From: Candidatus Paceibacter sp.
Lineage (GTDB): Bacteria > Patescibacteriota > Minisyncoccia > Phycocordibacterales > BOKC01
Length of the DNA: 64,000 nucleotides
NCBI GenBank assembly: GCA_020724885.1
Contig: DYGD01000002.1
Coordinates: 3,038 to 67,037 of the forward strand
Direction: 5' to 3'
Shown here piece by piece: positions 2,278-54,947 of this stretch (the stretch's first letter is position 1; each line of letters starts with the position of its first letter). The notes beneath the pieces are model-generated. The model was not told the DNA's origin and did not search any database. It saw only the letters and a list, made by a program, of their open reading frames with translations. Position numbers and translations under genes: made by a program.

Positions 2278-2309
2278 ACCGGACACACCCTCTTTAAAGA
2301 GGTGGTACT

Positions 2310-2337: not shown

Positions 2338-2346
2338 CCCCGACCG

Positions 2347-2371
2347 TGCCGCAAGGCGGCACGGCAAACTC
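2347..2371 (-). terminator. GC hairpin (gtgccgc AAG gcggcac) upstream of 16S promoter, within secF-16S intergenic
   Basis: 9-bp perfect stem seen in sequence; role as terminator of secDF transcription is inferred. Confidence 0.3.
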
Positions 2372-5017: not shown

Positions 5018-5069
5018 AAAGTTAGAGGTACTTATAGCATAACCGAGATTAAATCACAAATTTTTTTAA

Positions 5070-5969: not shown

Positions 5970-5995
5970 TTTATTTTTTCTTTAATTAAAAAATT

Positions 5996-7321: not shown

Positions 7322-7380
7322 ATATTTATAACTATAGTAGAAAAAAGCCCCGAATTGTCAAATATGCTAGGATAAAAGCA

Positions 7381-8574
7381 ATGGTGAACAAAAAAATCCT
7401 ATATATAATCACTAAAGCTGAACCATTCGGCGGCGCCCAGAGATATGTTTTTGATTTGGCAACTAATTTGCCAAAAGAACAATTTCAAGCGGTGGTAACT
7501 TTAGGAGAAGGCAAAACCTTAGAAGAAAAATTACAGAAAGAGGGGGTCAGAACAATCCACCTTAAAAACTCTCAAAGAAACATCAGCCCCCTCAAGGACT
7601 TTTTGCTCTTTTTTGAACTGCTGAAAATTTATAGACGAGAAAAGCCGGATGTTATCCACCTCAACAGCTCCAAAGTCGGTTTCCTCGGCTCCCTCGCCGC
7701 CCAAACTTATTCCCTATACCCTAAACCCCATACCCTAAACCCTAAAATAATTTTCACCGCTCATGGCTGGGCTTTCAACGACAGCCGATTTTTTTTGTCA
7801 AAAATATTCTGGAAATTTCTGCAGTGGCTAACCGTACTTTTAGCTGACCAAACAATCGCGGTTTCAGAAAAAACTAAAAATAATATGAACTGGTCTGGAG
7901 CGAGCGATAAAATCAAAGTTGTTTATAACGGTCTGCCCTCCTTGAATTTTTTGGAAAAAACAGAAGCGCGAATCGAGTTGTCTAAGAAAGACAGACGGTT
8001 AGAAAATATTCCGAAAGACAAAATCTGGATTGGAACAGTTTCCGAATTGCACAGAAACAAAGGCCTGGATTTAATGATTGAGGCATTATCAAAAATCAAA
8101 AACGAGAAGGCCAATTGGGTGTTTATAGTCTGTGGCGAAGGTGAAGAACGAGAGAAGTTAAACCAATTAATTCACCAAAAAGAAATGGGGAGCAAAATTT
8201 TTTTGGTCGGTTTGGTTAAAAATGCCGCCACCTATCTGAAAGCCCTTGATATTTTTACCCTGACTTCGCGAACGGAAGGCCTGCCTTATGCTCTCTTGGA
8301 GGCGGGAGCGGCCGGTCTACCGACAATTGCTTCCAACGTCGGTGGCATACCGGAAGTCATACAGCATGGTAAAAACGGGCTACTTTTTGAAAGAGAAGAT
8401 GTGGGCGAGCTAAAGAGGCAACTAGAAGACACCCTCGGAGATGAAGGAAGAGTGAGTCTTTTCGGAGCCAGTTTGCAAAAAAGTATAGCGGAGAAATTTT
8501 GTCTAGGTAATATGTTAAAATTAACAGAAAGTATTTATTGCTTTAAACACCCACAAAATGGAAGAGGAAAATAA
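7381..8574 (+). CDS. Glycosyltransferase family 4 (GT-B)
   Basis: EGLPYALLEAGAAGLPTIASNVGGIPEV motif typical of GT4. Confidence 0.8.
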   Translation: MVNKKILYIITKAEPFGGAQRYVFDLATNLPKEQFQAVVTLGEGKTLEEKLQKEGVRTIHLKNSQRNISPLKDFLLFFELLKIYRREKPDVIHLNSSKVGFLGSLAAQTYSLYPKPHTLNPKIIFTAHGWAFNDSRFFLSKIFWKFLQWLTVLLADQTIAVSEKTKNNMNWSGASDKIKVVYNGLPSLNFLEKTEARIELSKKDRRLENIPKDKIWIGTVSELHRNKGLDLMIEALSKIKNEKANWVFIVCGEGEEREKLNQLIHQKEMGSKIFLVGLVKNAATYLKALDIFTLTSRTEGLPYALLEAGAAGLPTIASNVGGIPEVIQHGKNGLLFEREDVGELKRQLEDTLGDEGRVSLFGASLQKSIAEKFCLGNMLKLTESIYCFKHPQNGRGK

Positions 8575-8764
8575 AGTTGAATTCTTGGAAGAAGAGGAAA
8601 TAATAAACGAAAAAAGAGGAGTCAGAAAAGCGGCTAGCGCTATGGCTGCGTGGCTTATAAAAAAAAGGATTGCAAGGGATGAAAAGACGGCCAACAAAAT
8701 CTTAGTCGCGATAATAATCGCCGCTTTTTTACTAACCGGTTACATACTGATAAAACAATTCTAA
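8558..8764 (+). CDS. Small hypothetical membrane protein (acidic N-term, one C-terminal TM)
   Basis: ORF only; weak RBS; overlaps GT4 stop. Confidence 0.3.
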   Translation: MEEENKVEFLEEEEIINEKRGVRKAASAMAAWLIKKRIARDEKTANKILVAIIIAAFLLTGYILIKQF

Positions 8765-8786
8765 GATGAAACGATCTAACCAGAAG

Positions 8787-9929
8787 TTATATTAAAACTC
8801 CCTCCTGCTTCTCGTCTTTGTGAAAAGTGCCTCGGTATTTTCTCATACCCATCAATATGCCCAGCGCCGAAAATTCTGCCAAGAGATGAGAGCCACCATA
8901 GCTGGTAAAAGGTAAGGTAATACCGGTAATCGGTAAGAGCCCGACATTTATCCCGACATGAACAGCAAAATGACTGATAAACCAAAAAGTTACTCCGGCG
9001 CCAAAAAGTATTTCAAAATTTGAAGAGCCATAAATCGAATTGCTGATAATCCTCCAAACCAAGACCAAAAAAACGACAGAAAATATCAAGACACCAAACA
9101 AACCCCATTCTTCAGCAAAAGCCGCGAAAATAAAATCGGTTTGGTATTCCGGCAAAAAACGCAAACGCGACTGGGTACCGAAACCAATCCCCTTTCCGAA
9201 CCACTGGCCACTACCGACAGCAATCATGGATTGCAAAGAATGATAGCCGGCGCCTTGGATATCAGCCAGTGGATTAAGAAAAGCGCTTAATCTTTGCTTC
9301 TGATAATCCGCCAGAACAAACACCCACAAAAAAGCAAAAGACAGAACTCCGGCAGTTAAGACCCCAAGAATGTGCTTTTTTGATATTCCCGAGACCATTA
9401 CCATACCAAACCAAACCAAGAAAATAATGATTGAAGAACCAAAATCCGGCTGAAGAAAAATTAAAAGAAACAAAACAAAGGCATAAAGTCCGGAAACCAA
9501 GATGTGCTTAAAGTGGGCAATTTCAATATGCCTTTTGGAAAAAAATTTAGCTAATACAATCACCAGAGCAAGCTTGGCAAAATCAGTCGGCTGAAACGAA
9601 AAAAAACCGAGATCAATCCAGCGCTCAGAACCTTTTACCGTCATACCCAAGAAAGCTAGAGACACGAGTAGCAAAAAGGCGAAAGAAAATATTGATATCG
9701 CAACCACACTCCTTCTTAGAAACCTCCAATCAACCAAGCTAAAAACAAAAAAAACAAGCAACGAGGCAGAAAGCCAGATAATTTGTCTAAAAAAAAACGG
9801 GCTTTCTTCGGAAAAAGAATGCATCGTTACTAATCCAGCGACAGAGAGAAGGAGGGCGGACAAAAGCAAAATCCAATCAATATCAAAAAAACCCCTTATT
9901 TTTGTGTAGACCAAATTAAAGGTCTTCAT
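8787..9929 (-). CDS. FtsW/RodA/SpoVE family peptidoglycan glycosyltransferase (SEDS)
   Basis: ~10 TM with the conserved C-terminal SEDS region. Confidence 0.8.
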   Translation of the reverse strand: MKTFNLVYTKIRGFFDIDWILLLSALLLSVAGLVTMHSFSEESPFFFRQIIWLSASLLVFFVFSLVDWRFLRRSVVAISIFSFAFLLLVSLAFLGMTVKGSERWIDLGFFSFQPTDFAKLALVIVLAKFFSKRHIEIAHFKHILVSGLYAFVLFLLIFLQPDFGSSIIIFLVWFGMVMVSGISKKHILGVLTAGVLSFAFLWVFVLADYQKQRLSAFLNPLADIQGAGYHSLQSMIAVGSGQWFGKGIGFGTQSRLRFLPEYQTDFIFAAFAEEWGLFGVLIFSVVFLVLVWRIISNSIYGSSNFEILFGAGVTFWFISHFAVHVGINVGLLPITGITLPFTSYGGSHLLAEFSALGILMGMRKYRGTFHKDEKQEGVLI

Positions 9930-9932
9930 ATT

Positions 9933-11318
9933 CTAAGAATTATCTACTTCTCTTGTAATAATCTCCACCACCGTCGGTGCTTCTTTGCAGATTTTTTCAG
10001 CCAAGGAGCTGAAAACCGGAAACAGGTCGGAGGAATTGGTGGCACCAAAATAATATTCCGGGCTATGGGCAATCTCCCTCAAGAAATCTTCGTCAATCTG
10101 TTCTTGGCCAAGACCGACCACAAACATCACAGCGCCGACATCTTTAATTGCCAGAGAAATTTCCTTGGCAAGGTAAATCGGATAATCTGGCTGTCCAGTC
10201 ATTTTAGGGTGAGTCGGCACGCCATCGGTAAACAAAACAACCGCTTTTTCGTTTTGGCTTCGTTCAAGTTCAAAAAGAGCAAGCTCCAGACCTTCAGCAA
10301 TATTGGTTTCTTGAGTCCAGACCTCGTCAGGAGTTTCAGCTTTAACAGATATTTTATCCACAGCGTCCTTCGCGCTGGCCGGATCGCCAACCAAAGAAAT
10401 ATCAAGACTGGCTTCTGTCGCAAATGACACTAAACCCACCCTAACATTTGAAAAAAGCTTCTCCAAAAAGCCGAGAGCCGCCCTTTTGGCAGAATTGAGG
10501 GGTTCGGGATTATCAAGATCCCAGTTGTCAAAGACCATACTCCCCGACCTGTCAAAAACCAACATTAAATCAACCGGATTCTCGCATACAAACTCCTGAA
10601 CTTCAAACGGCCTAGGCCAGGTAAAGACAAAACTTTCTCTTGCTCCGGTCCGAAAATCATCAATAAAAGTTCTAGAAGCTCCGATGGCGTTTTTGTTGCC
10701 ATCAAAGACCAGAGCGGCGACCTCTAGCCGATCAATATTAAAAATAGAGACGTTTTCCAGTTGGACATCAAGCCGTGGCGCGCTATCTTCTGCAGTTAAA
10801 TTTTTCCTACCAACCATAATGTCCGGCTGAACACTTTCGTCTTTGTACCAAACAACTTCTTCCAAAAAGATAAAATCAGTCCTAGCAACTCTGCCGTCCG
10901 TCCGGATATTTGGCTCAAAGACAACCGCATTGCGACTATTTGGTATTGAAATTTCACCCCCAGCTTCAGACAAAACTGCGCCGAAAGAATCCAACAATCT
11001 AAACCGGTAAGAAACTTTTTCGGTTGAAGAATTAAAGTTTGGATTCTCCAGAAAAGCGACCGCGCTATAAATCCCCGGGGAAACCTCAAAGGCCCGACTC
11101 CAATGAACAATCGGCTCTCTCACCTCAAAAGGACAAAGTTGCAAACACTCTCCGCCACAGTCAATCCCCAGCTCGCCCTGATTTTGAATGCCGTCAAAAC
11201 AGGTTGGCTTCTGATAAGAAAAAATAAAATAGACGGAAAAAACTATAACAAAAAGCGCGGCAAAAATTACCGACAAATATGTTAATTTCCTTTTAACCGG
11301 CCATTCAAGCGGCTGCAT
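9933..11318 (-). CDS. Membrane-anchored von Willebrand factor A domain protein
   Basis: N-terminal TM; Cys-rich segment CFDGIQNQGELGIDCGGECLQLC; vWA MIDAS motif LVFDRSGSM. Confidence 0.7.
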   Translation of the reverse strand: MQPLEWPVKRKLTYLSVIFAALFVIVFSVYFIFSYQKPTCFDGIQNQGELGIDCGGECLQLCPFEVREPIVHWSRAFEVSPGIYSAVAFLENPNFNSSTEKVSYRFRLLDSFGAVLSEAGGEISIPNSRNAVVFEPNIRTDGRVARTDFIFLEEVVWYKDESVQPDIMVGRKNLTAEDSAPRLDVQLENVSIFNIDRLEVAALVFDGNKNAIGASRTFIDDFRTGARESFVFTWPRPFEVQEFVCENPVDLMLVFDRSGSMVFDNWDLDNPEPLNSAKRAALGFLEKLFSNVRVGLVSFATEASLDISLVGDPASAKDAVDKISVKAETPDEVWTQETNIAEGLELALFELERSQNEKAVVLFTDGVPTHPKMTGQPDYPIYLAKEISLAIKDVGAVMFVVGLGQEQIDEDFLREIAHSPEYYFGATNSSDLFPVFSSLAEKICKEAPTVVEIITREVDNS

Positions 11319-11351
11319 ATAAAAAGAATTATATCAAAAAAAGTCTCGTCT

Positions 11352-11462
11352 GGGTCTTGAGCGCTTTGTGTTGGCGACTAGCTACTCTCCCCTTGCGAGT
11401 ACCATCGCCACTACTGTGCTTAACTTCCGAGTTCGGAATGGAATCGGGTGTACCCACAGCGT
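11352..11462 (-). rRNA. rrf: 5S rRNA
   Basis: Minus-strand sequence CCGATTCCATTCCGAACTCGGAAGTTAAGCACAGTAGTGGCGATGGTACTCGCAAGGGGAGAGTAG matches the 5S consensus. Confidence 0.85.
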
Positions 11463-11852
11463 TTAATCACCAACACAAAAAACTCAAGATTCCAAGAACA
11501 AAAACAGGCAAAACTTTGATTGCATAAAAGAGAGCAAAACCTTGCGATTTTCAAATTTCCCGATGAGATTGATTTATTAGTACGCCTCGGCTCAACACAT
11601 TACTGTGCTTACACCTGGCGCCTATCAACGTGATCATCTCTCACGAATCTTAATGATTCCTAATCTTGGGGTGGGCTTCCCTCTTAGATGCTTTCAGAGG
11701 TTATCCCTTCCGAACTTAGCTACCCAGCGGTGCTCCTGGCGGAACAGCTGGTAGACCAGAGGTTCGTTCCTCGAGGTCCTCTCGTACTATCGAGAACTCC
11801 CCTCAAGAATCAACGCCTGCAGTAGATAGGAGACCAACCTGTCTCACGCAAA

Positions 11853-12160
11853 AGTAGCTCACTAGGCGCTAGGCTTTGGACCTTAGGATCTAGGAACACC
11901 GCCGTTACCGGCGGGATCGGACGATACACTCGCGGTCAATCCGCGGTTGGTTTGTCGTCTCTACAAGGATTTTACTCCTCTCGGTGTTGTCCTTCTAAGG
12001 ATTCCACCGATAACCCCAACTTGTCACTGAATTAGATTCAGTGCCGCCGTGATTTGATTGGTTTCTATCTCTATTCGTAGACGAAAAGTTCGATTACGTC
12101 GTTATGAGCGGATTCAGACGGTACTTATACCGATACTTGACAAAATCTATTTTTATCAGT
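11853..12160 (-). mobile_element. ORF-less intron-like insertion (~305 nt) in 23S near E. coli site ~2585-2593
   Basis: Exon reads GCTGGGTTCAGACCGT [insert] CGTGAGACAGGTTGG versus contiguous E. coli GCTGGGTTTAGAACGTCGTGAGACAGTTCGG. Confidence 0.6.
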
Positions 12161-12289
12161 ATAACTACGGTCTGAACCCAGCTCGCGTACCTTTTTAATT
12201 GGCGAACAGCCAAACCCTTGGAAGCTTCTCCACCTCCAGGATAAGGTGAGCCGACCACTTTCAATCCCCATGTTGCCATGGGAGCAGAC

Positions 12290-13140
12290 TATACCTTTGC
12301 TTATATCCTAACTATAAGCACCAGCGTGTTATGGCAATGTTTTATCAAATTTAATTGAGGCATTTGCCATCTGTTCACTTAAGAACAAGTCGTTACGGGG
12401 CAATACAACCAATCTTGTATTCCATCGGATGGACGATGTATGGTTTTATAAGATTAATCATTTTGAGAGTTTCGGATTTATTTGCATACATCCGAAATCC
12501 TTTGTCACGATCCTTATGGTGAACCATTTGAATACCAAATTTTTTATAAATAGCATTTTCAAGAATTTTTATTTCCTCTAGCACAAAAGAATAAGTGCTG
12601 ATATCAATAATCCCTTTGTTAAAGGATCCGTCGTCCATAATCCATACTGCCATAGATTGAGGATTGAGATCGACTCCGATATCTTTTGGAATTATTTTCC
12701 TACCAACCCTATATCCATCCCCAACATAAAACCTATTGTAGATTTTTGTTAATAATGGATGTCTCACTGTCCTAAACCACCAAGATTTTCGATATTTACT
12801 TCCATTTTCATCATATCGATAACTTATCTTTGGTTCAGTTAGTACCAGGTCTTTCAATACAGAATACTTATACTCTGTATATTCTTTTTGAGCTAATCCC
12901 TGTTCTATTTTGAAGTTAGCATTTACTGCTCCCTTCCCCATTCTCATTGTTCCATCCCCAAGCAAACAACCCACTAAAAGTGAAAGTTGCTCGTCAGTCA
13001 GAAACATTTTTTCTTTAACGGGAATTAAATCCTTGTGCCAATATTTTGTTGCATAGCTTCCCACGGTGTTGACCATACTATAACGCGAATTATAACATGG
13101 CTTTCTCCGTTATGAGCTGATTTAATGTGCATGAAAAATC
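12290..13140 (-). mobile_element. Intron in 23S (near E. coli ~2500, after GGCACCTCGAT) carrying a LAGLIDADG ORF
   Basis: Exon AACAGGCTGGTTCCGCCTAAGAGTCCATATCGACGGCGGAGTTCGGCACCTCGAT is interrupted and resumes at TCGGCTCACC ~12285. Confidence 0.65.
12393..13076 (-). CDS. LAGLIDADG homing endonuclease (intron-encoded)
   Basis: Motifs LLVGCLLGDGTM and AVWIMDDGSF. Confidence 0.8.
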   Translation of the reverse strand: MVNTVGSYATKYWHKDLIPVKEKMFLTDEQLSLLVGCLLGDGTMRMGKGAVNANFKIEQGLAQKEYTEYKYSVLKDLVLTEPKISYRYDENGSKYRKSWWFRTVRHPLLTKIYNRFYVGDGYRVGRKIIPKDIGVDLNPQSMAVWIMDDGSFNKGIIDISTYSFVLEEIKILENAIYKKFGIQMVHHKDRDKGFRMYANKSETLKMINLIKPYIVHPMEYKIGCIAP

Positions 13141-13289
13141 ATACACACGAGAGAATTGTTCGTATTCTCCCCCTCGACATTCGGTATCTATCGAGGTGCC
13201 GAACTCCGCCGTCGATATGGACTCTTAGGCGGAACCAGCCTGTTCATTGTTTTAGCTGGTGAATAGACTATATCATCACCCCGCCTTGG

Positions 13290-14170
13290 CGGGGGACGGC
13301 GTATTAGTATAAATTCTTGTTCGATAGAAATTTATACTCCATTCACAAAAAGTGAATGAGTCGTTACGGGGTCAAAGAGGTGTTTGATTCTCCTAATTTG
13401 TATTGCATTGAAGGTATAACATATTCTCGAATTAGTTCGTGGAGCTTTTTTGTTTCGTTCACTCCAAAAAATAATGCGTAACCCTTCTCTTTTTTGTCGT
13501 AAATTTTTGGTTTTAGGTCAAAATTTTCGACTATTGCATTTTCTAACAATGAAGACTCTTTTTGGGATACTCTGCCGAGATAAATATAGCTAGATTTATC
13601 TCTCAAGTAGTAGTATCCGTCATCCATATACCAAACCGCCAAAGCCAATGGAGCAGTTAATAATTCGGAAATATTTTTCGGCACTTTCTTTTTGCCATCT
13701 TCGTAGAAAATATTTCTCCATTTGCCGATCTCTGGCGAAGCATTGGACTGCCATCGCCAATATCCGTATTGCTTTCTGGTAATCGGATGAATTCTTTCTA
13801 GATGAGACGGTTTTCCTTGGAAAAGGCGCGGGAATTGACTTCCCTTCCAGATTAAATAATCTTTCTGCTTTTCTCCCTGCTCAAATCTAATTCTCGCGTT
13901 TTGAGAACCAGTTTTTTGCAGAAACGCGTCTCCCAACACAGAACCTATTATTATAGATTCCTGCCTTTTGGTTAATTTCATTGTGTTTACATTTTATCAC
14001 CTCTCGACTTCCCACGGGATTGTGCACTCTAAAACTCTTTTGTAAGAGAGACCTGTGCGTTTCCCCCGTTATAAGCCGTTCTTATTCCTGCTCTTGTGGA
14101 TCAAGAAAACAGGAACGCAAGATTTAATCTCGCTTCTCCGCAGATTACTCTGCGGGAGGACAACAAACGC
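13290..14170 (-). mobile_element. Intron in 23S (near E. coli ~2449, after CCCCGGGGA) carrying a LAGLIDADG ORF
   Basis: Exon ...GGATAAAAGCTACCCCGGGGA at ~14171-14200; exon resumes at AACAGGCTGG ~13250. Confidence 0.65.
13364..13981 (-). CDS. LAGLIDADG homing endonuclease (intron-encoded)
   Basis: Motifs IIIGSVLGDAFL and AVWYMDDGYY. Confidence 0.8.
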   Translation of the reverse strand: MKLTKRQESIIIGSVLGDAFLQKTGSQNARIRFEQGEKQKDYLIWKGSQFPRLFQGKPSHLERIHPITRKQYGYWRWQSNASPEIGKWRNIFYEDGKKKVPKNISELLTAPLALAVWYMDDGYYYLRDKSSYIYLGRVSQKESSLLENAIVENFDLKPKIYDKKEKGYALFFGVNETKKLHELIREYVIPSMQYKLGESNTSLTP

Positions 14171-14363
14171 CTTATTTCAGGCGTCATCCCCGGGGTAGCT
14201 TTTATCCGATAATCTTTGGCCGCATCTAAAGCGCGCCAGCGGTTCACTTAGCCCTGCTTTCGCATCTGCTTGAGACGTACCTCTCACAGTTAAGCCAGCT
14301 TATGCCTATACACTATCGGCACGGTTTCCATTCGCGCCTAGCTGACCTTAATGGACTCCTCCG

Positions 14364-14996
14364 TTACTTTTTAGGCAATGTGTTACCCAATTTATATTTC
14401 ATAGAAGGAAGAATGTGCGGCTTAATAAGTTCCTTGAACTTTTTGGCTGACTGAGATTGTATATACAATCTCCAATACTTCCCTTTTTGCTTATGAAGTG
14501 ATGTTTGAAGATCAAACTTATTCTTTAAGATACTCTGAATGCCTTCTAACTCATCTCTACCGTATCCAAGCGTGTGTATTACATATGTTTGATGTCGAGT
14601 AGATTTGAGCGAACCATCATCCATAAACCAGATCGCCAAGCTTAGAGGAGTAAACAACTTCTCAACCACTGTTGGAATAATTTTCTTACCTTCTTGATAA
14701 AAAATCCTTCCAAAACTTCTGAATGCTTCGTGAGAATATGTTCTCACTCCTACATACACCTTTCCATTTTTAACCTTTGTGTATGGTGTGCTTGGTATCC
14801 ATGATTTTAACTCTCGGTAAAGCCATACCAAATATTCATTTTGAGCACCACAGTGTTCAATCTTCAATCTATATGTCTCACCTTTATCCTGAGTCTCAAG
14901 ATGACCGTCTCCAAGTAAAGTGCCAACGATTATTTCTTGCTGGCGCTTCGTCAAGACTAAGCTCTTCTTGAGTTCGCGGATAGCTTTAGTATTCAT
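14364..14996 (-). CDS. LAGLIDADG homing endonuclease (intron-encoded; stop codon lies ~10 nt inside the downstream 23S exon)
   Basis: Motifs IIVGTLLGDGHL and AIWFMDDGSL. Last codons cct aaa aag taa overlap exon sequence CCUAAAAAGUAACGGAGG. Confidence 0.8.
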   Translation of the reverse strand: MNTKAIRELKKSLVLTKRQQEIIVGTLLGDGHLETQDKGETYRLKIEHCGAQNEYLVWLYRELKSWIPSTPYTKVKNGKVYVGVRTYSHEAFRSFGRIFYQEGKKIIPTVVEKLFTPLSLAIWFMDDGSLKSTRHQTYVIHTLGYGRDELEGIQSILKNKFDLQTSLHKQKGKYWRLYIQSQSAKKFKELIKPHILPSMKYKLGNTLPKK

Positions 14997-15355
14997 CGGG
15001 TTCTTGTTTTCACAAGACTCACTGTCGCCAGTGAGATCGGACTATATCTTCATCCTTAATTATAAAGGATGGTTGGTGTTTAGTCTCTACGGGTGTTTAT
15101 GTGCTGGATAGTGAGGGGGAGCGTTAACTGGTAACGCTCCCCCTAGTGAACCCGCCAACATGGTATTTGCCGTAGCATGGAGGACGGGATCCACTATTCA
15201 ACACACAAACTTCCCTCGGAATTGTCTCTTTACAGAGAGTTTTTCCGATATGACCAACTTTTTCCGCCCCGATTCACATCGGGGGGTCCCCCTAATTTGT
15301 TTTTTTCGGAGTCGGAGTAACTCCATGAGGCGCCTGATTTCAAGACACGAAAAAT
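14376..15355 (-). mobile_element. Intron in 23S (domain V region ~E. coli 2250s) carrying a LAGLIDADG ORF; contains a 13-bp GC hairpin (gggggagcgttaac/gttaacgctcccc)
   Basis: Exon GTGGGGCGCTTTCCTTC at ~15356-15372; exon resumes at CCTAAAAAGTAACGGAGGAG ~14376. Boundaries approximate. Confidence 0.55.
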
Positions 15356-15689
15356 CATGTCCTGAAGGAAAGCGCCCCACTTAAACTGCCCACCAGATAA
15401 TGTCCCTTGCCGTTTTTGCCGACGAGGTTAGAACATATCCTTTCACAGAGTGGTATTTCACTGGCGACTCCATGCCGACCGAAACCGGCACTTCAAAGTC
15501 TCCCACCTATGCTACGCAGTAAAAAAATAAGCTCAATATCAAGTTGCAGTAAAGCTCCCGGGGTCTTTTCGTCTAACTGCAGGTAACCGGCATCTTCACC
15601 GGTATTGTATTTTCACCGAGCAAGTCCCCGAGACAGTTGCCCACTCGTTACGCCATTCGTGCACGTCTCTAATTAAGAGACAAGGAATT

Positions 15690-15900
15690 ACGCTCTTCTA
15701 TCCCTTTAACAGAAGGACCATGTCTTCATCTCTGCTTATTAAGCAGAGCGCACGGCGTATGGCCTCTCATATGAGCCGTGATTGGACTATTCTTGTGTCA
15801 CCACAAGAAAGGTAGCTTTCGCATAATTTATTTGTTTATCTCCATAACGATCCCAGTCCTTCTGATTCCCTTAAAAAGAGAATCAGAACCTTAGGATCGT
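15690..15900 (-). mobile_element. ORF-less intron-like insertion (~215 nt) at the classic 23S site 1917 (after CCUAAGGU)
   Basis: Exon GTCGGTCGTAACTATAACGATCCTAAGGT [insert] AGAAGAGCGTAATTCCTTGTC versus contiguous E. coli sequence. Confidence 0.6.
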
Positions 15901-16077
15901 TATAGTTACGACCGACATTCACCAGGGCTTATAACAATCACCAATACATCTTGCGACATATCAACGTCGTTACTTGACCTTCTGGCATTGGTCAGGCGTC
16001 ACCCCCTATACATCCTCTTGCGAGTTCGCAGGGAGCTGTGTTTTTGATAAACAGTCGGCAGGCATACTTTAGCTGCG

Positions 16078-16221
16078 GCCCCCGACACCAACTTTGGCAT
16101 CGTTGCATTGTGTGTTTTCGTAATTTTTGTCGCAATACTTCAGATTTTAAGTAAGAAATTATTACTTACTTTAATCTTTGGAGTTGCAACAAAAACACAA
16201 TGCCAAAGTTGGCGTCGGGGG
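16078..16221 (-). ncRNA. ~145-nt stem-loop insertion / intervening sequence in 23S (variable helix near E. coli ~1720-1750) closed by a 22-bp stem
   Basis: cccccgacaccaactttggcat ... atgccaaagttggcgtcggggg inverted repeat (one G-U); the closing stem and ~40 nt of loop are similar to the element at 18655..18797. Confidence 0.55.
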
Positions 16222-17501
16222 CAGGCCTTATTGCGAACTTACGGCCGCTTTTTTGCCGAGTTCCTTGGGGACCTCTCACTCGTTCGCCTTGGTCTTCTCG
16301 ACCTGACTACCTGTGTCGGTTTTGCGGTACGGTTTGAATCTGCTTAACCTTAGAAGTTTTTCTTGGAAGCGCGCTTTACAAAATTTGATCACCCGAAGGT
16401 TCACATTTTCGTTCTGCTTGGGTTTGTGCCTCCCGGATTTTCCTGGGAAACGCCCTCACAGCGCGAACATAAATCCAATAATATGCTTTGTATACTGCAC
16501 TCCGTCCCTCCATCGAAACAAATTCAAGTCACGGAATATTAACCGTGTGTCCATCACCTTCGGCTTTCGCCATCGGCTTAGGCCCGACTAACCCTTCCCT
16601 GATTATCATCGGGAAGGAAACCTTAGTCTTTCGGCGTCCCGGTTTCTCACCGGGATTGCGGTTACTTGTGCCAACATTCTTACTTCCACACGCTCCAGCA
16701 TGGGTTACCCCTTTGCCTTCAACGCAGAGTGGAATACTCTCCTACCACATGTCAATGCGAAGCACTGACACATCCTCAGTTTCGGTATCATGCTTGAGCC
16801 CCGATTATCTTTGGCGCAAAATCTCTGAATAAGTGAGCTGTTACGCTTTCTTTAAAGGATGGCTGCTTCTAAGCCAACCTCCTTATTGTCAGAGAAATCT
16901 TACAACCTTACGCGCACTTAGCATGAATTTAGGGACCTTAACTAGAGATCTGGGCTGTTTCCCTTTTGACCAATGGAGCTTAGCCCCCACAGTCTAACTG
17001 CCAGATTCTGGCTGCGAGTATTCGGAGTTTGATAGGTTTGACGAGGTTTCCCCCTATTCAAACCTTCCAGTGCTCTACCCCCCGCAGAAACATCTGACGC
17101 TAACCCTAAAGCTATTTCGGAGAGAACCAGCTATTACCAAGTTCGATTAGCTTTTCACTGCTTACCACAAGTCATCCGATGGAGTCGCACGACCAACCGG
17201 TTCGGGCCTCCGCACGCCTTTCGGCGCACTTCACCCTGCTCATGGCAAGATCACTTGGCTTCGGGTCTCATGTATACGACTATTATTTCGCGCTTTTAAC
17301 ACTCGGTTTCCCTGTGGCTCCACCCAGTCAAGGGCTTAGCCAGCCGCATACATAAACTCGTTGGCTCATTCTTCAATAGGCACGCCGTGATGGCTCCCCG
17401 CTTTTGAGTTGTAGAAAACTCTACTTCCCAAAAGTGGGGAGCCACTCCGACTCCTTGTAGGCATATGGTTTCAGGTCTATTTCACCGCCCTCACCGGGCT
17501 G

Positions 17502-17541
<40 letters not shown>

Positions 17542-18625
17542 TCTAACGATATTTAGCCTTACCGGTTAGTTCCGGCAGATTCACCCGAGCTATTGATGTC
17601 TCGAGTTACTCAAGAATAGCAACCAAGGAGTTTTTCTTGTTTTCGCCTACAGGGCTATCACCTCCTGGGGCTTCTCTTTCCAGAGAATTCGGCTAACAAA
17701 AAAATATTTTTTACTCCTCTGGCTAGGCCGTGTTGCTATCTTACAACCCCCCTCCCCAGTTTTGAATTATGGAAATTTCCATATCTCAAAACTGGGGAGG
17801 GGTTTGGGCTCTTTCCTTTTCGCTCGCCGCTACTAAGAAAATTCCTATTGGTCTCTTTTCCTCCGGGTACTGAAATGTTTTACTTCCCCGGGTTTGCATC
17901 TCGAACTGGTCGAGATTTCCGCCAAAAGCGGAAGGGTTTCCCCATTCGGACATCTCCGGATCAAAGGTTGCTAGGCACCTCCCCGAAGCATATCGCCGCC
18001 AAGCCGCGTCCTTCATCGCTCGTTAGAACCTAGGCATCCACCATACGCCCTTGAATTCCCATCAGGAAATTCAAAAACCGCTGTCAATGCGAAGCATTGA
18101 CCGCGGACACACGCAGACAGGACGCAGAAATACGCAGAAATCTAACTCGAAACCACATGGCTACGAATCAAGATTCTGCGACCTTCTGCGTTCGTTCTGC
18201 GATATTCTGCGGTCAGTGCTTCGCACTGACATTTTTGCTCTCTTTTATACAATCAATCTGCGCAAAGCGCAGATTTGCCTGTCCCGAAACCCTATCTTCC
18301 GAAAGAATTCCGGGATAATCTGTCTACAACAAATAAAGACCCCTCGACTACGCTCGGAGTAAACTCCTTAGTAATCAAAAGTTTTGTTGTGACAGGATTT
18401 TGTCTGCGATATCGGGCTATGCCCAACTCGCGGAACTTTTGTCAAACAACATTCCTTCATCCATTCTGGCTCTATCTTCCGGCCAAATTTCTGTTGTTTA
18501 ACAGAAATTTGGCCGAGAGACAAAAAAACCGCCTTTTAAGCGGATTTGACTATCACATAACGATAAAATCACCGTCTCCGCTTGAGTTTTGATATTAAAA
18601 AATTTATTAACATAACTTTATTCTA

Positions 18626-26753: not shown

Positions 26754-26803
26754 TTTCCAGCACCAGTTTTGGGTTCGCGCGAACCCAAAACTGGTGCTGG
26801 AAA
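26754..26803. repeat. 50-nt perfect palindrome (tttccagcaccagttttgggttcgc|gcgaacccaaaactggtgctggaaa)
   Basis: Read directly; lies in a ~700-nt non-coding AT-rich region between two minus-strand genes. Confidence 0.8.
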
Positions 26804-32309: not shown

Positions 32310-32873
32310 ATGCTCCAATACAACGAGATAACAGAAAAAAAGGTCATAGAATTAGACGGCGAACCGTATGAGGTTTTGAGCTCTCATGTCTTTCGCAAAC
32401 AACAGAGAAAACCTGTAAACGCCACAAAATTGAAAAACCTTGTCACCGGTAAAGTCACCGAGCGCTCTTTTCATGTCTCAGAAAAAGCCGAAGAAGCAGA
32501 CCTGAATCTCCAAGAGATCAAATATCTTTACAATAATCGAGGCGAATTCTGGTTTTGTGACAAAGATAATCCCAAAGATCGATTCAACCTCCCGGAAGAG
32601 TTGATTGGATCGCAAGTAAAATTCTTAAAGGAAAATTCGGTAATTGACGCCATGGTATTTAACGAAAAAATAATCGGCCTAAAAATGCCGATAAAAGCGG
32701 ATTTAAAAGTTACTGAAGCCCACCCGGCGGTCAAAGGCAACACTGCGCAAGGCGCCACAAAAGAAGCGGTTTTAGAAACCGGCGTCACTATTCAAGTCCC
32801 TCTTTTTGTCAAGGAAGGAGACATTGTGCGAGTCAATACCGAAACCGGACAGTATGTTGAGAGAGTAAACTAA
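32310..32873 (+). CDS. efp: Translation elongation factor P
   Basis: Three-domain EF-P pattern ending VPLFVKEGDIVRVNTETGQYVERV. Confidence 0.9.
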   Translation: MLQYNEITEKKVIELDGEPYEVLSSHVFRKQQRKPVNATKLKNLVTGKVTERSFHVSEKAEEADLNLQEIKYLYNNRGEFWFCDKDNPKDRFNLPEELIGSQVKFLKENSVIDAMVFNEKIIGLKMPIKADLKVTEAHPAVKGNTAQGATKEAVLETGVTIQVPLFVKEGDIVRVNTETGQYVERVN

Positions 32874-32876
32874 CCC

Positions 32877-33012
32877 ATACAACCTATACAACCTATACAA
32901 CAAAATCAGCGAATAAATCCCCCCCCCTTCGCCTTGCCAGCTTGGCACCTCCTTTAGGAAAGGGAGAATAGAAGCCAACGGATTTGAGCGGTTGTTGGTT
33001 GTATAGGTTGTA
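32877..33012. repeat. Long imperfect inverted repeat (catacaacctatacaacctatacaacaa ... ttgttggttgtataggttgtagaggttgttgg) between convergent efp and rpsR
   Basis: Arms read from sequence; the right arm shares an 18-mer (ggttgtagaggttgttgg) with an in-frame repeat inside argS (52950..52985). Confidence 0.7.
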
Positions 33013-33023
33013 GAGGTTGTTGG

Positions 33024-33269
33024 CTACTTCTGCACGTATGGCAGAAGTCCCATAAAACGAGCTCTCTTTATTGCCAAAGAAAGTTTGCGTTGGTTTTTGG
33101 CAGAAACGCCCGTTCTTTTTCTGGCCAAAATCCGACCATGTGGATTAAGAAATTTCTTCAGGATTTCAACATCCTTGTAATCAACGTGTCTTATATTATT
33201 TTGGGTGAAAAAACATTGGGTCATATTTTTGTTGGACATTAGTTTACTAGATCTTGGAATTTGGGTCAA
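33024..33269 (-). CDS. rpsR: 30S ribosomal protein S18
   Basis: S18 family pattern [29 protein letters not shown]. Confidence 0.9.
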
Positions 33270-34653: not shown

Positions 34654-35478
34654 TCAACAAATGACCATAGACCTTAATTTCTCTGTGTTTCCATGCTTCA
34701 ACACTCCTAAATACGAAGTAATGGTTTCCGGCTTCGGATTTCCTTTTATTCTCTTTATCACTCTCCTCCTAGTCGCCGTCCTCAACACCCGGTGTTTGGG
34801 AAAATTCACCCAGCCCAGGAAATCAACTCCGGAAGCGAAGGTTTTTATATAGACCTTATCAGGATGCAAGTTCAATTTGAGCTTGGTTTCAAGAAATTCT
34901 TTGATTTTTGGAATTAAATGTTCAAGTTCTGCTTTGTTGTCTGAAAGAAACACAAAATCATCGGCGTAGCGGATGTAGTATTTTTGTTTGAGTTGGTGTT
35001 TAACAAATTGGTCAAACTCGTTCATATAGACATTGACCAGAAGTTGGGAGGTTAGGTTCCCCAGAGGCAGGCCTTTATTTGGCATTCCAGAGTTGAAGCT
35101 TTTGATGATTGTTTCCAGAAGTTCAATCACTTCCGGTTCAAGGCGGTGTTTCTTTAGAATTTCAATTAGAATGTCTTGGTCAATAGAAGCAAAGAACTTT
35201 CTGATGTCGCACTTCAAGACCCAAGAGGTTCTGGTGTTGTTTTTGCTGACTTTAAAGAAGAATCTCTGGAATCTGGCGATGGCTTTGTGAGTGCCTTTGC
35301 CTATCCGGCAGGAGTATGAATCGGCGATGAATTTTTTATCAAAAAAGGGATAGAGTTGTCGGTAGATGGCGTGGTGGAGCAGGCGGTCCTTGACGCTGGC
35401 TTTGTGGATGGTGCGGGGCTTGGGGTCGGAGATGTTGAATGAATGGTAACTTCCATGCTCATAAGTTAAATTTTTCAA
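34654..35478 (-). CDS. Reverse transcriptase, DGR-type (diversity-generating retroelement RT)
   Basis: Complete RT motifs 1-7: KPRTIHKASVKDRLLHHAI (1), FIADSYSCRIGKGTHKAI (2), LKCDIRKFFASIDQDIL (3), GLPLGNLTSQLLVNVYM (4, LGxxxSQ signature of DGR RTs instead of QGxxxSP), YIRYADDFVFL (5), LKLNLHPDKVYIKT (6), GVDFLGW (7). No maturase/En domain; 274 aa. Confidence 0.8.
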   Translation of the reverse strand: MKNLTYEHGSYHSFNISDPKPRTIHKASVKDRLLHHAIYRQLYPFFDKKFIADSYSCRIGKGTHKAIARFQRFFFKVSKNNTRTSWVLKCDIRKFFASIDQDILIEILKKHRLEPEVIELLETIIKSFNSGMPNKGLPLGNLTSQLLVNVYMNEFDQFVKHQLKQKYYIRYADDFVFLSDNKAELEHLIPKIKEFLETKLKLNLHPDKVYIKTFASGVDFLGWVNFPKHRVLRTATRRRVIKRIKGNPKPETITSYLGVLKHGNTEKLRSMVIC

Positions 35479-49157: not shown

Positions 49158-49233
49158 AAAAACAATTTTATCACTTTTGTAATGACTTACAAAAACAAAA
49201 CTCCCCCGCGCAAGCAGGAGAGAAAGAAGAGAT

Positions 49234-49349
49234 TTGCGAGGAGAGCGGGGTTGTTCCGGTTCCAGTCGTTGTCGAGCCAGTTCCAGTTGACCTTGACGCG
49301 GTTGCCGTTCCAGATGAGGTAGGCAACCTTGCGATTGCCGCCGGACTCC
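49234..49349 (-). repeat. DGR template repeat (TR), 116 bp, in the leader of ileS
   Basis: Minus strand reads ...AAT CGC AAG ... AAC GGC AAC ... AAC TGG AAC TGG ... AAC GAC TGG AAC CGG AAC AAC CCC GCT CTC CTC GCA A (Asn/AAC-rich); identical to VR except at adenines. Confidence 0.85.
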
Positions 49350-49697: not shown

Positions 49698-50249
49698 TCA
49701 AAAATCAAAGGAACTTGCGAGGAGAGCGGGGCAGTCCCGGCGCCAGTCGTCGCCGAGCCAGCGCCAGAGGACCAAGACGCGGTCGCCGTACCAGACGAGG
49801 TAGGCAACCCTGCGACGGCCGCCGGACTCCCGGACAGAACCCCACAGGGAAACCACCTTGTCTTTGAACTCGTCCGGGTAAGTCGTCGGATTGTCGAGCC
49901 AGCCCTTGACCTCCGGGCTCTCCAATGAGCTAGCGCGCTTGATCATACCGGTCTGATCAAGATGTCTAAAGAGTTCAAATCCATCAATCACCCCTCCGCC
50001 TTCTTGTGTTGGATGGAAGTAGAGTTCGTAATCAGGAGGCATCAGCGCCTCGCGAAGCGTTCTGGTGAGAGAACCCTGATTTGTGATCCATCCCTGGGCC
50101 ACATCAGGATCCATGTCTCGAGGCAGACCCCGCGCAACCGCAGACATCAGTTCAGAGAACTGATCAATTCCCATCAGTCCTCCCCGTCCTTCTTTCTTTT
50201 TCCTACCCATTCCGAATTCTCCTTTCTGGCTTACCTCTGATTCGGCCAC
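49698..50249 (-). CDS. DGR target protein with C-terminal variable region (GC-rich gene; probable start at Met26, 50174, preceded by GGAGG)
   Basis: C-terminus ESGGRRRVAYLVWYGDRVLVLWRWLGDDWRRDCPALLA corresponds to TR-encoded ESGGNRKVAYLIWNGNRVKVNWNWLDNDWNRNNPALLA; no signal peptide. Confidence 0.75.
   Translation of the reverse strand: MAESEVSQKGEFGMGRKKKEGRGGLMGIDQFSELMSAVARGLPRDMDPDVAQGWITNQGSLTRTLREALMPPDYELYFHPTQEGGGVIDGFELFRHLDQTGMIKRASSLESPEVKGWLDNPTTYPDEFKDKVVSLWGSVRESGGRRRVAYLVWYGDRVLVLWRWLGDDWRRDCPALLASSFDF
49715..49830 (-). repeat. DGR variable repeat (VR), 116 bp, 3' end of target gene
   Basis: Aligned base-for-base with TR; ~22 mismatches, every one at a TR adenine (coding strand), e.g. 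AAT->CGT, AAC->TAC/GAC/CTC/CGC/TGC, AAG->TTG; ends with GC-rich CCCCGCTCTCCTCGCAA (IMH-like). Confidence 0.85.
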
Positions 50250-51799: not shown

Positions 51800-53518
51800 C
51801 TACATTTTCTCCGGCACCTCAATCCCCAATAGCCACAATCCATTTTGGAGAGTAATAAAAACCGCTTCGGTTAAGGCAATTTTATAAGGAGAATTTTTGT
51901 CTGTTTTATCCACAATTTTTTCTTTAGCGTAAAAGCCGTTGAACTCGCCGGCCAGCTCAATCAAATATGTAGCCAATTTTTGCGGCGCAAATTCTTTCGC
52001 CGCCTCTTCCACCACTTCCGGAAACTTATAAAGTAATCTTTCTACATTATTTATCTCCGTTGATTCAGAATTGGCAGACGGCTTAATCTTTTCCTGCCCG
52101 GCTTTTTCTAAAACTGATTTGGCGCGCACCGCCGAATACTGCAAGTACGGACCGGAGTCGCCCTCAAACGAGAGCGATTTTTCAAAATCAAAAACAATAT
52201 TTTTGCCCGGCGCTTGTTTTAAAATTGAATACTTGAGCGCGGCAACGGCAACTTTGTCGGCAACATCTTCTTTATTTTCTATCTCACGCTCCGCCATTTT
52301 TTGAAGAGCCAGATTATGAAGCTGATTTAAAAGCTCTTCCCCGCCAATGATGTTGCCGGTCCGCGAAGACATCCGGCCTTCGGAAAGACGCAAGCGACCG
52401 TGAGACAAGTGTTCAATTTTTCCTTTGAGTTTAGGAAAAACAAATTCAGACGCTTTAACAACCACTTTATAATATTCGGACTGCTCAACATCGGTAACAG
52501 TAATGGAACGGTCAAATTTAAAAAACTTGCGCTTCAATTCAATTAACCCTAAATCTTTAGCTTCATAAGTCGGCAGGCCTTCGGAATTTATGAAAACGCG
52601 GGTGTGAAGGCCTGATTTCTCACCAGATAAAATTATTGCATTTTCACTTTTCTCAAACATGCCTTCAGCTAAAAATTTGGCGACCAATTTCCGGCCGACT
52701 TCTCCCGCTTCGCTTTCAAAAAAACTGGCGTCAAATTTGCTACCGAGCCGAGTGTAAATTTTTTTAAAATGACTAAGAGAGAGCTCCAGTCCTTTTTTAT
52801 AAATTTCGTTTATCTCCGGGTCGCTCTGTTCGTAGATTTTTTTGTTTATTTCTACAATTTCTTTTCTAGCTGCCTCATCTGCTTCATAAGCTCTATCCCC
52901 TTCCGCATACGCTTTTCCAAGAATTTCTATCGTAAGCTGTTGACTGCTCGTTGTAGAGGTTGTTGGTTGTAGAGGTTGTTGGTTGATTAATGCCCAAACC
53001 ACCTTGGCAACATGAAGCCCGACATCGCCGTGATAAGTCGCTCTTTTAAGTTTTGGCCCTTCCGCTTCAATAAGGCGAGAAACTGCTTCACCGACAATGT
53101 TGTTTACCAAGTGGCCAATATGAAAAACTTTAAAAGGATTCGGCTGGGTGTATTCAATTATTATTTTCTGTCCAACTAGATTCTTGTTCAAACCAAAATC
53201 TTTTTTCTCTTTTAGAATTTCTTTTGTTGAAGAAATAAAAAAATCTTTTGAAAGATAAAAATTTATAAATCCCGGCCCGGCGATTTCGATTTTTTGCAAA
53301 AAATCGAAATCGCCCTGGGTTCGCCGAAGAATAGACACGATTTTCTCCGCCAACTCTCTTGGGTTTTTGCCTAAATCTTTGGCATATAAAAGCGAAACAT
53401 TGGATGAAAAATCGCCGTGAGAAATTTCGGCCGGGTGCTCAAGCTCCACTTTTGGATTTTCTACCCCAAAATCTTCCAGCGCCCTCTTTATTAAATTTTC
53501 CAATTTTTCTTTAATCAC
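51800..53518 (-). CDS. argS: Arginyl-tRNA synthetase (carries an in-frame repeat insertion QQPLQPTTSTTSSQQ)
   Basis: HIGHLVNNIVGEAVSRL (HIGH) and MSSRTGN (KMSKS-equivalent) motifs. Confidence 0.9.
   Translation of the reverse strand: MIKEKLENLIKRALEDFGVENPKVELEHPAEISHGDFSSNVSLLYAKDLGKNPRELAEKIVSILRRTQGDFDFLQKIEIAGPGFINFYLSKDFFISSTKEILKEKKDFGLNKNLVGQKIIIEYTQPNPFKVFHIGHLVNNIVGEAVSRLIEAEGPKLKRATYHGDVGLHVAKVVWALINQQPLQPTTSTTSSQQLTIEILGKAYAEGDRAYEADEAARKEIVEINKKIYEQSDPEINEIYKKGLELSLSHFKKIYTRLGSKFDASFFESEAGEVGRKLVAKFLAEGMFEKSENAIILSGEKSGLHTRVFINSEGLPTYEAKDLGLIELKRKFFKFDRSITVTDVEQSEYYKVVVKASEFVFPKLKGKIEHLSHGRLRLSEGRMSSRTGNIIGGEELLNQLHNLALQKMAEREIENKEDVADKVAVAALKYSILKQAPGKNIVFDFEKSLSFEGDSGPYLQYSAVRAKSVLEKAGQEKIKPSANSESTEINNVERLLYKFPEVVEEAAKEFAPQKLATYLIELAGEFNGFYAKEKIVDKTDKNSPYKIALTEAVFITLQNGLWLLGIEVPEKM
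52950..52985. repeat. Tandem 18-mer repeat gttgtagaggttgttgg x2 inside argS, shared with intergenic repeat at 32981..33012
   Basis: Exact 18-mer match between the two loci. Confidence 0.75.
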
Positions 53519-53595
53519 TATGAAATTTTAGCACACCAAAAGAAAGGGGCTGGTGCTTCACACCAAACCCCGATGGGAGAGTGTCTGACGACGCT

Positions 53596-53868
53596 TCATC
53601 GCTTTCTTCGGCAACCGCGTCGGGTGCACTGTTGTCCTCGGATGTACCTTTTGCAGTTTTGGAGAAGAATTTCCTCCGGCAAGTCCATCCTGCCGGCGCC
53701 GCCGGCGACTTCAGGTAATGCGCGGTTATACAATCGGCAATCCAGGAGCCAACAGCGAGCGTTCCCCTCCGCTCTCTTGTGAGAGCGAATCAGTTCCCTT
53801 AAGCGCCGGATCTCCTGCCCCCTTTGTCCAGAAGTCATTTTTTTGATATCCGGATCGAGTTTTCCCAC
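53596..53868 (-). CDS. Small basic hypothetical protein in GC-rich island (GTG start after GGAGG)
   Basis: 90-aa ORF, Arg/Lys-rich C-terminus, SD GGAGG 4 nt upstream of GTG; preceded by GTTCCG repeat array 53890..53935. Confidence 0.35.
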   Translation of the reverse strand: MGKLDPDIKKMTSGQRGQEIRRLRELIRSHKRAEGNARCWLLDCRLYNRALPEVAGGAGRMDLPEEILLQNCKRYIRGQQCTRRGCRRKR

Positions 53869-54004
53869 CAGACACCTCCTTCAGTGTGTTGCGTGTTCCG
53901 TGTCCTGTTCCGTGTTCCGTTTCTTGTTCCACTTCTCAATATATCATATTTCGCTTATCTAAAATTATCTAAAAAACCACTTCTACCCAACAAAAATAAC
54001 GAAA

Positions 54005-54828
54005 TAACGACATCGTAAGTCATTATTTTTTAATCTTCCAAAATTAAATCCTTAATATCAAAAATATTCTCTGAGTCAAGCTCTTTCAACCATTCGGCTA
54101 TACCTTTTTTGTAATTTTTTGCTCCACCCCAGAAATCATTTAAAAGATTGCGTTGAGTTACTGAAGGGAAATTTTTATTGTCCATATAATCCAGATGGCT
54201 AGACCAGCGATAACTGTTTAAAAATTTCATAGCTTCGCGGACACTTCTTAATTCTCCGCTTCGCCATTCTTTAAATTTTAGATCAAGTGGATTCAAATGA
54301 ATATAGTATGGTAGATGAATAAAATGAGCATCGTTATTAACAATAATTGACTTATATCTTCCTTCAAATAAGGTGCCCGTTCTTTTATAACGTTCGTTGA
54401 AATACTTAGCGTAGCCGATATTTAATTTTTTCATAAACTGCGAAATGCCTCGCTCTATTCTCGGTCGCAGAAGCAAGTGGTAGTGATTAGGCATCAAACA
54501 AAAAGCAAGAAGATCAACCAGTAATTTTCTCGGTCGCTTTTTCACATTAATATGATGACTTACGATGTTGTTATTTTGAGAAAAGCGGTGAAATGAATTA
54601 TTTACCGGTTGTTGATCGTTAAATTCAAATAAGTCGTGGATAAATCTCATTCGATCACGATCATCCATAAAAATTTTTCGTCGATCAACACCCCGACTCA
54701 AAACATGATAAATCTCGCTCATATCATATTATGACAATTAATCTTTTTTTATTTAAATAATTTGATTTCTTTTAAATTTTAACCAAATTAATAATAACAT
54801 ACCACTACAACAAACATAACGACTTACG
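54005..54828 (-). mobile_element. IS200/IS605-family-like insertion sequence (Y1 HUH transposase plus subterminal palindromic ends)
   Basis: Near-identical imperfect palindromes ataacgacatcgtaagtcattat (54005..54027) and ataacgacttacgatgtcattat (54806..54828; reverse-complement-related) flank the tnpA ORF; element ~0.82 kb. Confidence 0.6.
54030..54722 (-). CDS. tnpA: IS200-like / REP-associated tyrosine (Y1 HUH) transposase
   Basis: N-terminal YHVLSRGVDRRKIF, HUH motif HYHLLL, downstream EGRYKS tyrosine. Confidence 0.7.
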   Translation of the reverse strand: MSEIYHVLSRGVDRRKIFMDDRDRMRFIHDLFEFNDQQPVNNSFHRFSQNNNIVSHHINVKKRPRKLLVDLLAFCLMPNHYHLLLRPRIERGISQFMKKLNIGYAKYFNERYKRTGTLFEGRYKSIIVNNDAHFIHLPYYIHLNPLDLKFKEWRSGELRSVREAMKFLNSYRWSSHLDYMDNKNFPSVTQRNLLNDFWGGAKNYKKGIAEWLKELDSENIFDIKDLILED

Positions 54829-54947
54829 ATGTCATTATATTTGATATTAAAATAGGAGATGTTTTTCTAAGCTTCTATAATCTCCTAATTTTTGTTTTTT
54901 ACTCTAATATCCTCCCCTATTAGCTATTGGATTGAAGTGGTTTAAGC

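Follow-up and report, generated by a model that had tools for sequence, protein, structure and literature searches.

Rickettsia palindromic elements (RPEs) are inserted in frame in housekeeping genes, at places where the protein fold tolerates them (PMC10969869). In this study, we analysed a 64-kb stretch of DNA from Candidatus Paceibacter sp. (contig DYGD01000002.1; hereafter the window, with coordinates given as positions within the whole stretch). In this window argS, the gene for arginine-tRNA ligase, carries a short tandem array that shares an 18-mer with one arm of a long hairpin in the spacer between efp and rpsR. We consider a single event of short-patch templated copying, to which we assign a probability of roughly 0.45, as the preferred link between the argS insert and the hairpin-type units. 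The finding is a curiosity of modest weight that bears on the copying of short repeats, and a new mobile element is unsupported.

The argS locus resembles RPEs in that repeat-derived DNA lies in frame in a housekeeping gene and a related palindromic copy is intergenic (PMC10969869). RPEs, however, are whole palindromes of ~150 bp with tens of copies and a conserved peptide, whereas argS holds 36-42 nt of one arm; two loci were found here in 64 kb, and a multi-copy family is not demonstrated. [quoted passage not shown] Copying of a short patch at microhomology, with a repeat or a hairpin arm as the source, is likewise what happens in template-switch or quasipalindrome-templated mutagenesis and in short-patch ectopic gene conversion. 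Template-switch mutagenesis also produces an insertion plus a deletion in one step, with the frame kept only through the total length. In classical cases the template is part of the same hairpin or lies a few hundred bases away, whereas the putative donor here lies 20 kb away and we infer the event itself. RPEs and template-switch mutagenesis are the closest described systems, and the insert is a demonstrated member of neither.

Low-complexity and microsatellite insertions in protein loops are likewise rich in Thr, Ser, Gln and Pro and lie in disordered, hypervariable loops, and arrays of the 9-nt unit described below occur in many viral contigs. The argS insert differs from them by its period of 16 nt, with two copies in two frames, and by the identical stretch of 18-25 nt in a nearby non-coding hairpin arm. 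Bidirectional terminators and terminator-like repeats, such as SPRITE of Streptococcus pneumoniae, share with the efp/rpsR hairpin a long hairpin that exactly fills the gap between convergent stop codons. The hairpin of the window, however, is without the short GC-rich stem and A/U tracts of terminators, and its stem is made of tandem 9-mers.

The tandem array in the ArgS loop

The 18-mer GGTTGTAGAGGTTGTTGG was found as an exact copy at 33006-33023 and at 52965-52982, and with one mismatch at 52949-52966. The latter two copies form a tandem array in argS (52950..52985, minus-strand gene) made of 2.2 copies of a 16-nt unit, GTTGTAGAGGTTGTTG on the plus strand, with 100% matches (Tandem Repeats Finder, period 16). 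The initial annotation had placed the 18-mer twice in tandem in argS; the repeat is real, but its unit is 16 nt long, so that these 18-mers share 2 nt. The array can also be parsed as 9-nt GTTGTAGAG units that alternate with 7-nt GTTGTTG. Its head-to-tail copies are perfect, as those of a slippage tandem duplication would be. Only GTTGT units of the same strand are present in 52950-52985, with no inverted partner, and no structure was predicted for the insert (fold z-scores -0.1 and -0.6).

On the coding strand, the first copy reads CAA CAA CCT CTA CAA C (QQPLQ) and the second CA ACA ACC TCT ACA AC (TTSTT). The two 16-nt copies are thus read in different frames, as QQPLQ(P) and then (P)TTSTT. 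As the 16-nt unit is not a multiple of 3, the frame is not kept at each duplication step. The array encodes QQPLQPTTSTTSSQQ at residues 180-194, which confirms the earlier description of a low-complexity insert in argS.

The argS gene (51800..53518, minus strand) encodes an intact arginine-tRNA ligase of 572 aa. Its start codon is GTG, and the JGI copy of the protein (P0241) is identical save for V/M at position 1. The HIGH and MSSR (KMSK) residues are invariant in the alignment, so that ArgS very probably works as an enzyme and tolerates the insert. The effect of the insert on ArgS is probably neutral.

A 42-nt segment (52940..52981, minus strand; codons Q180-Q193) replaces ~18 nt (KNFDYS) of the compared relatives, a net gain of 8 codons. 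Five argS genes were compared, which belong to two relative lineages (L116/L117/L120 and L118/L119). Their loop reads ATC AAT AAA AAC TTT GAC TAT TCA CAA TTA, and the loop of the window reads ATC AAC CAA CAA CCT CTA CAA CCA ACA ACC TCT ACA ACG AGC AGT CAA CAG CTT. The insert was absent from all five genes (L116-L120), and the peptide QQPLQPTTSTTSSQQ was present in 0 of 25 aligned ArgS orthologues. These results indicate that the insert is lineage-specific, in agreement with what the orthologue alignment proposed in the initial annotation was to confirm. ArgS of the closest other lineages is 77-80% identical in protein, and the relatives of ArgS and Efp bear names such as Paceibacteria, Zambryskibacteria and Taylorbacteria. 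These names, together with an rRNA operon that contains group I introns, mark the source of the window as a candidate-phyla bacterium of Parcubacteria type.

Among 26 Parcubacterial ArgS sequences, the loop shows wide differences in both length and sequence, and both flanks of the insert are colinear with the orthologues. In the AlphaFold model of ArgS (mean pLDDT 88.3), pLDDT falls below 50 only at 182-192, the insert, and at 383-389, the KMSK loop. The insert is modelled as coil between helices 168-179 and 197-213, and solved ArgS structures align through this region. These results suggest that the insert occupies a disordered, hypervariable surface loop. The earlier statement that the repeat sits in coding sequence without disturbing the frame was borne out, since the open reading frame (ORF) is intact and in frame through a length-variable loop modelled as disordered.

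The hairpin between efp and rpsR

The second locus lies between two convergent genes, efp (32310..32873, plus strand) and rpsR (33024..33269, minus strand), the latter at the end of the rpsF-ssb-rpsR run. A hairpin of 150 nt (32874-33023) fills the spacer from stop codon to stop codon. The left (5') arm (32874..32904, plus strand) begins 1 nt past the efp stop codon and consists of 3.3 copies of AACCTATAC. The right (3') arm (32990..33023, plus strand) reads GGTTGTTG GTTGTATAG GTTGTAGAG GTTGTTGG and holds the exact 18-mer, which abuts the rpsR stop codon (33024-33026). The initial annotation was right to place an exact copy of the 18-mer in the right arm, but this copy ends at 33023, 11 nt past the range it gave (32981..33012). 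Its left arm was said to be the reverse complement of the 18-mer; this did not hold, as there are 3 mismatches and the left arm is complementary to the 9-nt units instead.

The arm units are AACCTATAC and GTTGTAKAG, and the inverted arms 32879-32904 and 32995-33020 (26 nt, 90 nt apart) are 92% complementary. The outer stem of tandem 9-mers is ~26-30 bp long and encloses a branched interior of 85 nt (32905..32989, plus strand). The interior contains a run of nine C (C9, 32919-32927), as well as an inner stem (AAATCC/GGATTT) and a pair of small hairpins (UGCCA/UGGCA; CUCCUUU/AAGGGAG). The fold of the hairpin was -60.7 kcal/mol (z = -5.2), and the other strand also reached about -60 kcal/mol (z = -4.1).

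The position of the hairpin between convergent stop codons is that of a bidirectional terminator. The same spacer is 57 nt long in L139 and L140, two contigs of one lineage, where AAATTAAAACACCCGC-TCAAA-GCGGGTGTTTTAATTT forms a canonical bidirectional terminator. Three further lineages (L130, L137 and L126) carry hairpins of 117-226 nt with unrelated sequences at this spacer. Unit-built arms were absent from the spacers of L126, L130, L137 and L139. Given the terminator of L139/L140 and the unrelated hairpins at the same spacer, the hairpin of the window is therefore read as a fast-evolving 3'-end or terminator hairpin that would serve both genes. No canonical terminator-like site was called in the spacer of the window. 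A known structured RNA was rejected as an explanation, since the spacer was below the gathering score for every Rfam family and gave only weak matches (E 3.6 to 5).

Some side observations concern the same spacer. Downstream of its TAG stop, rpsR continues in frame as PTTSTTYTTNN... and stays open for 84 codons (33023 down to 32772, minus strand). In the frame of efp, PIQPIQPIQQ... extends for 27 codons past the TAA stop (32874-32954, plus strand). Translated in this way, the arms give the tripeptide repeats that also make up the argS insert, though there is no sign of readthrough. The stretch from efp to ssb is a hotspot in the relatives L129-L132, some of which carry a 23S_rRNA_IVP/bAvd gene. 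In those that carry it, rpsR is uncalled in the annotation and its sequence is present. A bAvd-like gene stands in relatives at the efp end of the ssb-rpsF run.

Origin of the argS array

Whether the resemblance between the two loci exceeds chance varies with the test chosen. The specific pattern matched 5 times in the window, against 0.06 expected. With the argS array as the focus, random tandem 16-mers of matched composition gave an exact match of at least 18 nt elsewhere in the window in 2 of 20,000 trials (p ~1e-4). Arrays of at least 3 GTTGT units occur in the window only at 32879-32901, 32991-33020 and 52950-52979, that is, in the two hairpin arms and the argS insert, and none was found in ~100 kb of the relatives' loci that were compared. 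The argS array is closer to the right arm than to the left one, and lies on the same DNA strand as the right arm. With one indel of a 9-nt unit, the match extends to 25 nt, CCAACAACCTCTACAA[CCTATACAA]CCAACAACC in the right arm (minus strand) versus CCAACAACCTCTACAACCAACAACC in argS. It takes in the CCAACAACC stretch, which is outside the paired part of the stem. A real relationship between the argS array and the hairpin arm is favoured at odds of roughly two to one, and is not proven.

The reading frames bear on how such a relationship may have arisen. As the two copies are in different frames, a local duplication of 16 nt would have thrown an essential single-copy gene out of frame. A single event that added a multiple of 3 nt must therefore lie behind the insert, and a templated patch fits this better than slippage in steps. 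Two lineage-specific features share the same slippage-prone units, 7-nt GTTGTTG and 9-nt GTTGTAKAG, and we propose that one event of copying links them. In the window lineage, the hairpin arms would have turned into tandem 9-mers, and argS would have gained its net 8 codons from the same units, in the strand orientation of the right arm. Template switching during replication, or short gene conversion, would have copied a unit array into argS after priming at CAAC/GTTG microhomology. The hairpin arm may have served as donor and have slipped in the process; otherwise a sister array, itself unseen, may have been copied. The patch would then have survived through a length that is a multiple of 3 nt and a landing site in an insertion-tolerant loop.

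Several observations weigh against templated copying. The junctions cannot be mapped at the nucleotide level, the nearest relatives being only 77-80% identical, and the use of microhomology is therefore conjecture. Continuous copying from the present right arm yields only 18-19 nt. The order of units is 9-7-9-7 in argS and 7-9-9-7 in the arm; donor slippage or an unseen donor must therefore be invoked. Among the dispersed exact repeats of the real window, GGTTGTAGAGGTTGTTGG is the longest, but alone it is without significance across the window as a whole: in an any-pair test, order-3 Markov simulations gave an expectation of 0.32 dispersed 18-mers per 64 kb, with at least one in 23% of the simulated windows. 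Arrays of the 9-nt unit also recur elsewhere as a coding microsatellite, which makes an independent origin less unlikely than statistics on random sequence would imply. The hairpin has no U-tract and no T run follows the right arm, so that a terminator function is not demonstrated. The window sequence itself has limited backing, since the NCBI and JGI assemblies are of the same organism, possibly from the same reads, and the Logan assemblies stop short of both repeats.

These points lend weight to an independent origin, in which argS acquired an ordinary Thr/Ser/Gln/Pro-rich loop insert, the arms slipped separately, arrays of the ACAACCTCT type were a common attractor, and the 18-mer is coincidental. 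Besides the simulated expectation given above, this account fits the recurrence of the units in unrelated DNA. Tandem arrays of GTTGTAKAG were found in unrelated viral and giant-virus contigs, with 23 matches to GTTGTAKAGGTTGTAKAGGTTGT against a chance expectation of ~0.01 (our own rough estimate). None of the 23 has an inverted partner; all are simple tandem arrays, flanked by repeats that resemble arrays coding for tripeptides (Thr-Thr-Ser or Gln-Pro-Leu type). In a metagenome scan with GTTGTTGGTTGTAKAGGTTGT, two of the three matches showed fragmented ORFs and look eukaryotic. A scan with GGTTGTAKAGGTTGTTGG showed that the 18-mer occurs at least 115 times in unrelated genomes and phyla, as single matches, and 106 of the 115 genome matches listed sit in non-repetitive contexts. 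The ArgS loop is, moreover, hypervariable anyway. Coincidence is harder to reconcile with the confinement of one unit type to three arrays in the window, with the p of ~1e-4 when the argS array is the focus, and with a gapped match that reaches 25 nt. An in situ duplication of 16 nt would also break the frame of an essential gene, and the insert is absent from five argS genes just as unit-built arms are absent from four other spacers. Taken together, we regard an independent origin as somewhat unlikely, though it deserves to be taken seriously.

A family of mobile hairpins was also considered, in which the 150-nt hairpin would be a full copy of an element like a MITE, a REPIN or an RPE, and the argS insert an in-frame fragment or footprint of another copy. 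The initial annotation had called the repeat mobile or recombinogenic. "Recombinogenic" is a plausible and reasonable description, whereas "mobile" found no support: the 64 kb hold no further copies, no target-site duplication was seen, and no link to a transposase was found. In favour of such a family, L135, which its GroEL marks as a different Parcubacterium, carries a hairpin with ~37 bp in its stem; the 3' arm of this hairpin contains a 22-mer identical to the window right arm. Its site is non-orthologous, between a CIRCE (controlling inverted repeat of chaperone expression) operator and the groES start. L051, an unclassified bacterial metagenome-assembled genome, has an intergenic GTTGTATAG GTCGTAGAG GTTGTAGAG GTTGTTGG with a short inverted partner. 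The window hairpin stands where L139 has a simple terminator, and palindromic elements in frame in housekeeping genes are known in Rickettsia (PMC10969869).

Against such a family, the window holds one full hairpin and, in argS, one one-armed fragment of ~36-42 nt, and blastn-short found no degenerate copies in the 64 kb; the 9-mer is not over-represented. Neither terminal inverted repeats nor a target-site duplication were seen at the argS junctions in comparison with relatives, the junctions being blurred by divergence, and the insert has no structure of its own. The loops of the window and L135 hairpins are not significantly similar (p ~0.1), and homologous interiors were rejected on this ground. 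The only transposase nearby, Y1_Tnp, is flanked by an unrelated inverted repeat, and the hairpins of closer relatives at the orthologous site are unrelated in sequence. We therefore hold a mobile hairpin family to be quite unlikely. In its broadest form, Parcubacteria would harbour an undescribed family of hairpin elements with arms of GGTTGT 7/9-nt units, which moves among non-orthologous sites and leaves pieces that persist in frame in essential genes such as argS; it would be a counterpart of the RPEs in the candidate phyla. Its sites may include the efp/rpsR terminator, the groES leader in L135 and the intergenic spacer in L051. We find this broader proposal improbable.

Two other sources of the repeat were rejected. 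A DNA uptake sequence (DUS/USS-like) was discarded, since GGTTGTAKA has 5 matches in 64 kb, 4 of the 5 within the two loci, and is not over-represented, whereas an uptake sequence would occur about once per kb. A phage origin was discarded because the viral matches, simple tandem arrays that lack an inverted partner, are not hairpins. As to the L135 hairpin itself, it lies at 3556-3705 of L135 and is ~110 nt long; its GU-rich arm abuts the groES start, downstream of the CIRCE operator TTAGCACTG-N9-GAGTGCTAA. Its fold was -48.8 kcal/mol on the strand with the GU-rich arm and -31.8 kcal/mol on the other. On the groES mRNA strand, the hairpin is weaker and rich in mismatches, reminiscent of an RNA thermometer.

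The least credible account, which we regard as very remote, is that mis-assembly, through collapsed repeats or chimeras, produced the argS array or the hairpin arms: the NCBI (71 kb) and JGI (102 kb) contigs may share source data and no Logan assembly spans either repeat, but the 572-aa ORF is intact with the insert and colinear with orthologues on both flanks, the shared exact match is only 18 nt, which is below the k-mer lengths commonly used by assemblers, and the Logan assemblies break at a palindrome and at the C9 run, not at the unit arrays. On the JGI contig Ga0246236_1000113, which is from the same organism, both loci are identical in sequence. The Logan breakpoints are the C9 run (32919-32927) in the hairpin loop and a perfect palindrome, TTTCGATTTTTTGCAAAAAATCGAAA, inside argS and ending at 53285. 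They look like assembly breakpoints, and the C9 run could be length-variable.

If templated copying is correct, the locus would be a clean natural example of a non-coding hairpin arm or a microsatellite that, in one step, seeds new peptide sequence in an essential enzyme. Such copying would also mean that variable loops of aminoacyl-tRNA synthetases absorb such material in bacteria with reduced genomes. If a dispersed family is real instead, a selfish or structural class of repeats would be added to the phylum, for which a limited literature search found no such family described. Neither of these readings opens a long-standing question.

Other features of the window

The Y1_Tnp gene (IS200-like or RAYT-like; 54030-54722, minus strand) lies ~0.5 kb upstream of argS and 1 kb from the insert. 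Together with ~0.5 kb of GC-rich spacer, it is inserted between dut and argS in the window lineage only. It is flanked by inverted repeats of 27-28 nt, ATAACGACATCGTAAGTCATTAT, at 54002-54030 and 54812-54838, and this repeat also occurs at 54549-54577 and 2618-2646. The presence near argS of a Y1_Tnp gene between short inverted repeats recalls repetitive extragenic palindromic (REP) sequences and REPINs with their REP-associated tyrosine transposases (RAYTs). However, ATAACGACATCGTAAGTCATTAT is unrelated to the GTTGT units, which are absent from the flanking repeat, and the GTTGT arrays are not themselves palindromic. A REP/REPIN-RAYT link was therefore rejected. The GC-rich island between the Y1 gene and argS (53560-53930) contains small ORFs without a Pfam match and a 19-nt tandem repeat, TGTTCCGTGTTCCGTGTCC, in 2.3 copies (53887-53930).

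A diversity-generating retroelement (DGR) was rejected as a source of the 18-mer: a pair of template and variable repeats (TR/VR) and a reverse transcriptase are present in the window, neither involves the 18-mer, and the 18-mer copies are identical and short. The DGR pair (49227-49349 and 49708-49830) is 123 nt long and 82% identical. Adenines (minus strand) in the 49227 copy versus any base in the 49708 copy account for 20 of the 22 mismatches. The variable copy forms the 3' end of a 183-aa ORF (49698-50249, minus strand). The only reverse transcriptase of the window (34654-35478, minus strand) adjoins rpsF, 14 kb from the DGR repeats.

At the other end of the window, an rRNA operon spans 1-18300 with two group I introns (15018-15367 and 23-1174), and its 23S rRNA matches in several separated pieces. 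A perfect palindrome of 50 nt, with 25-nt arms and no spacer, lies at 26754-26803.

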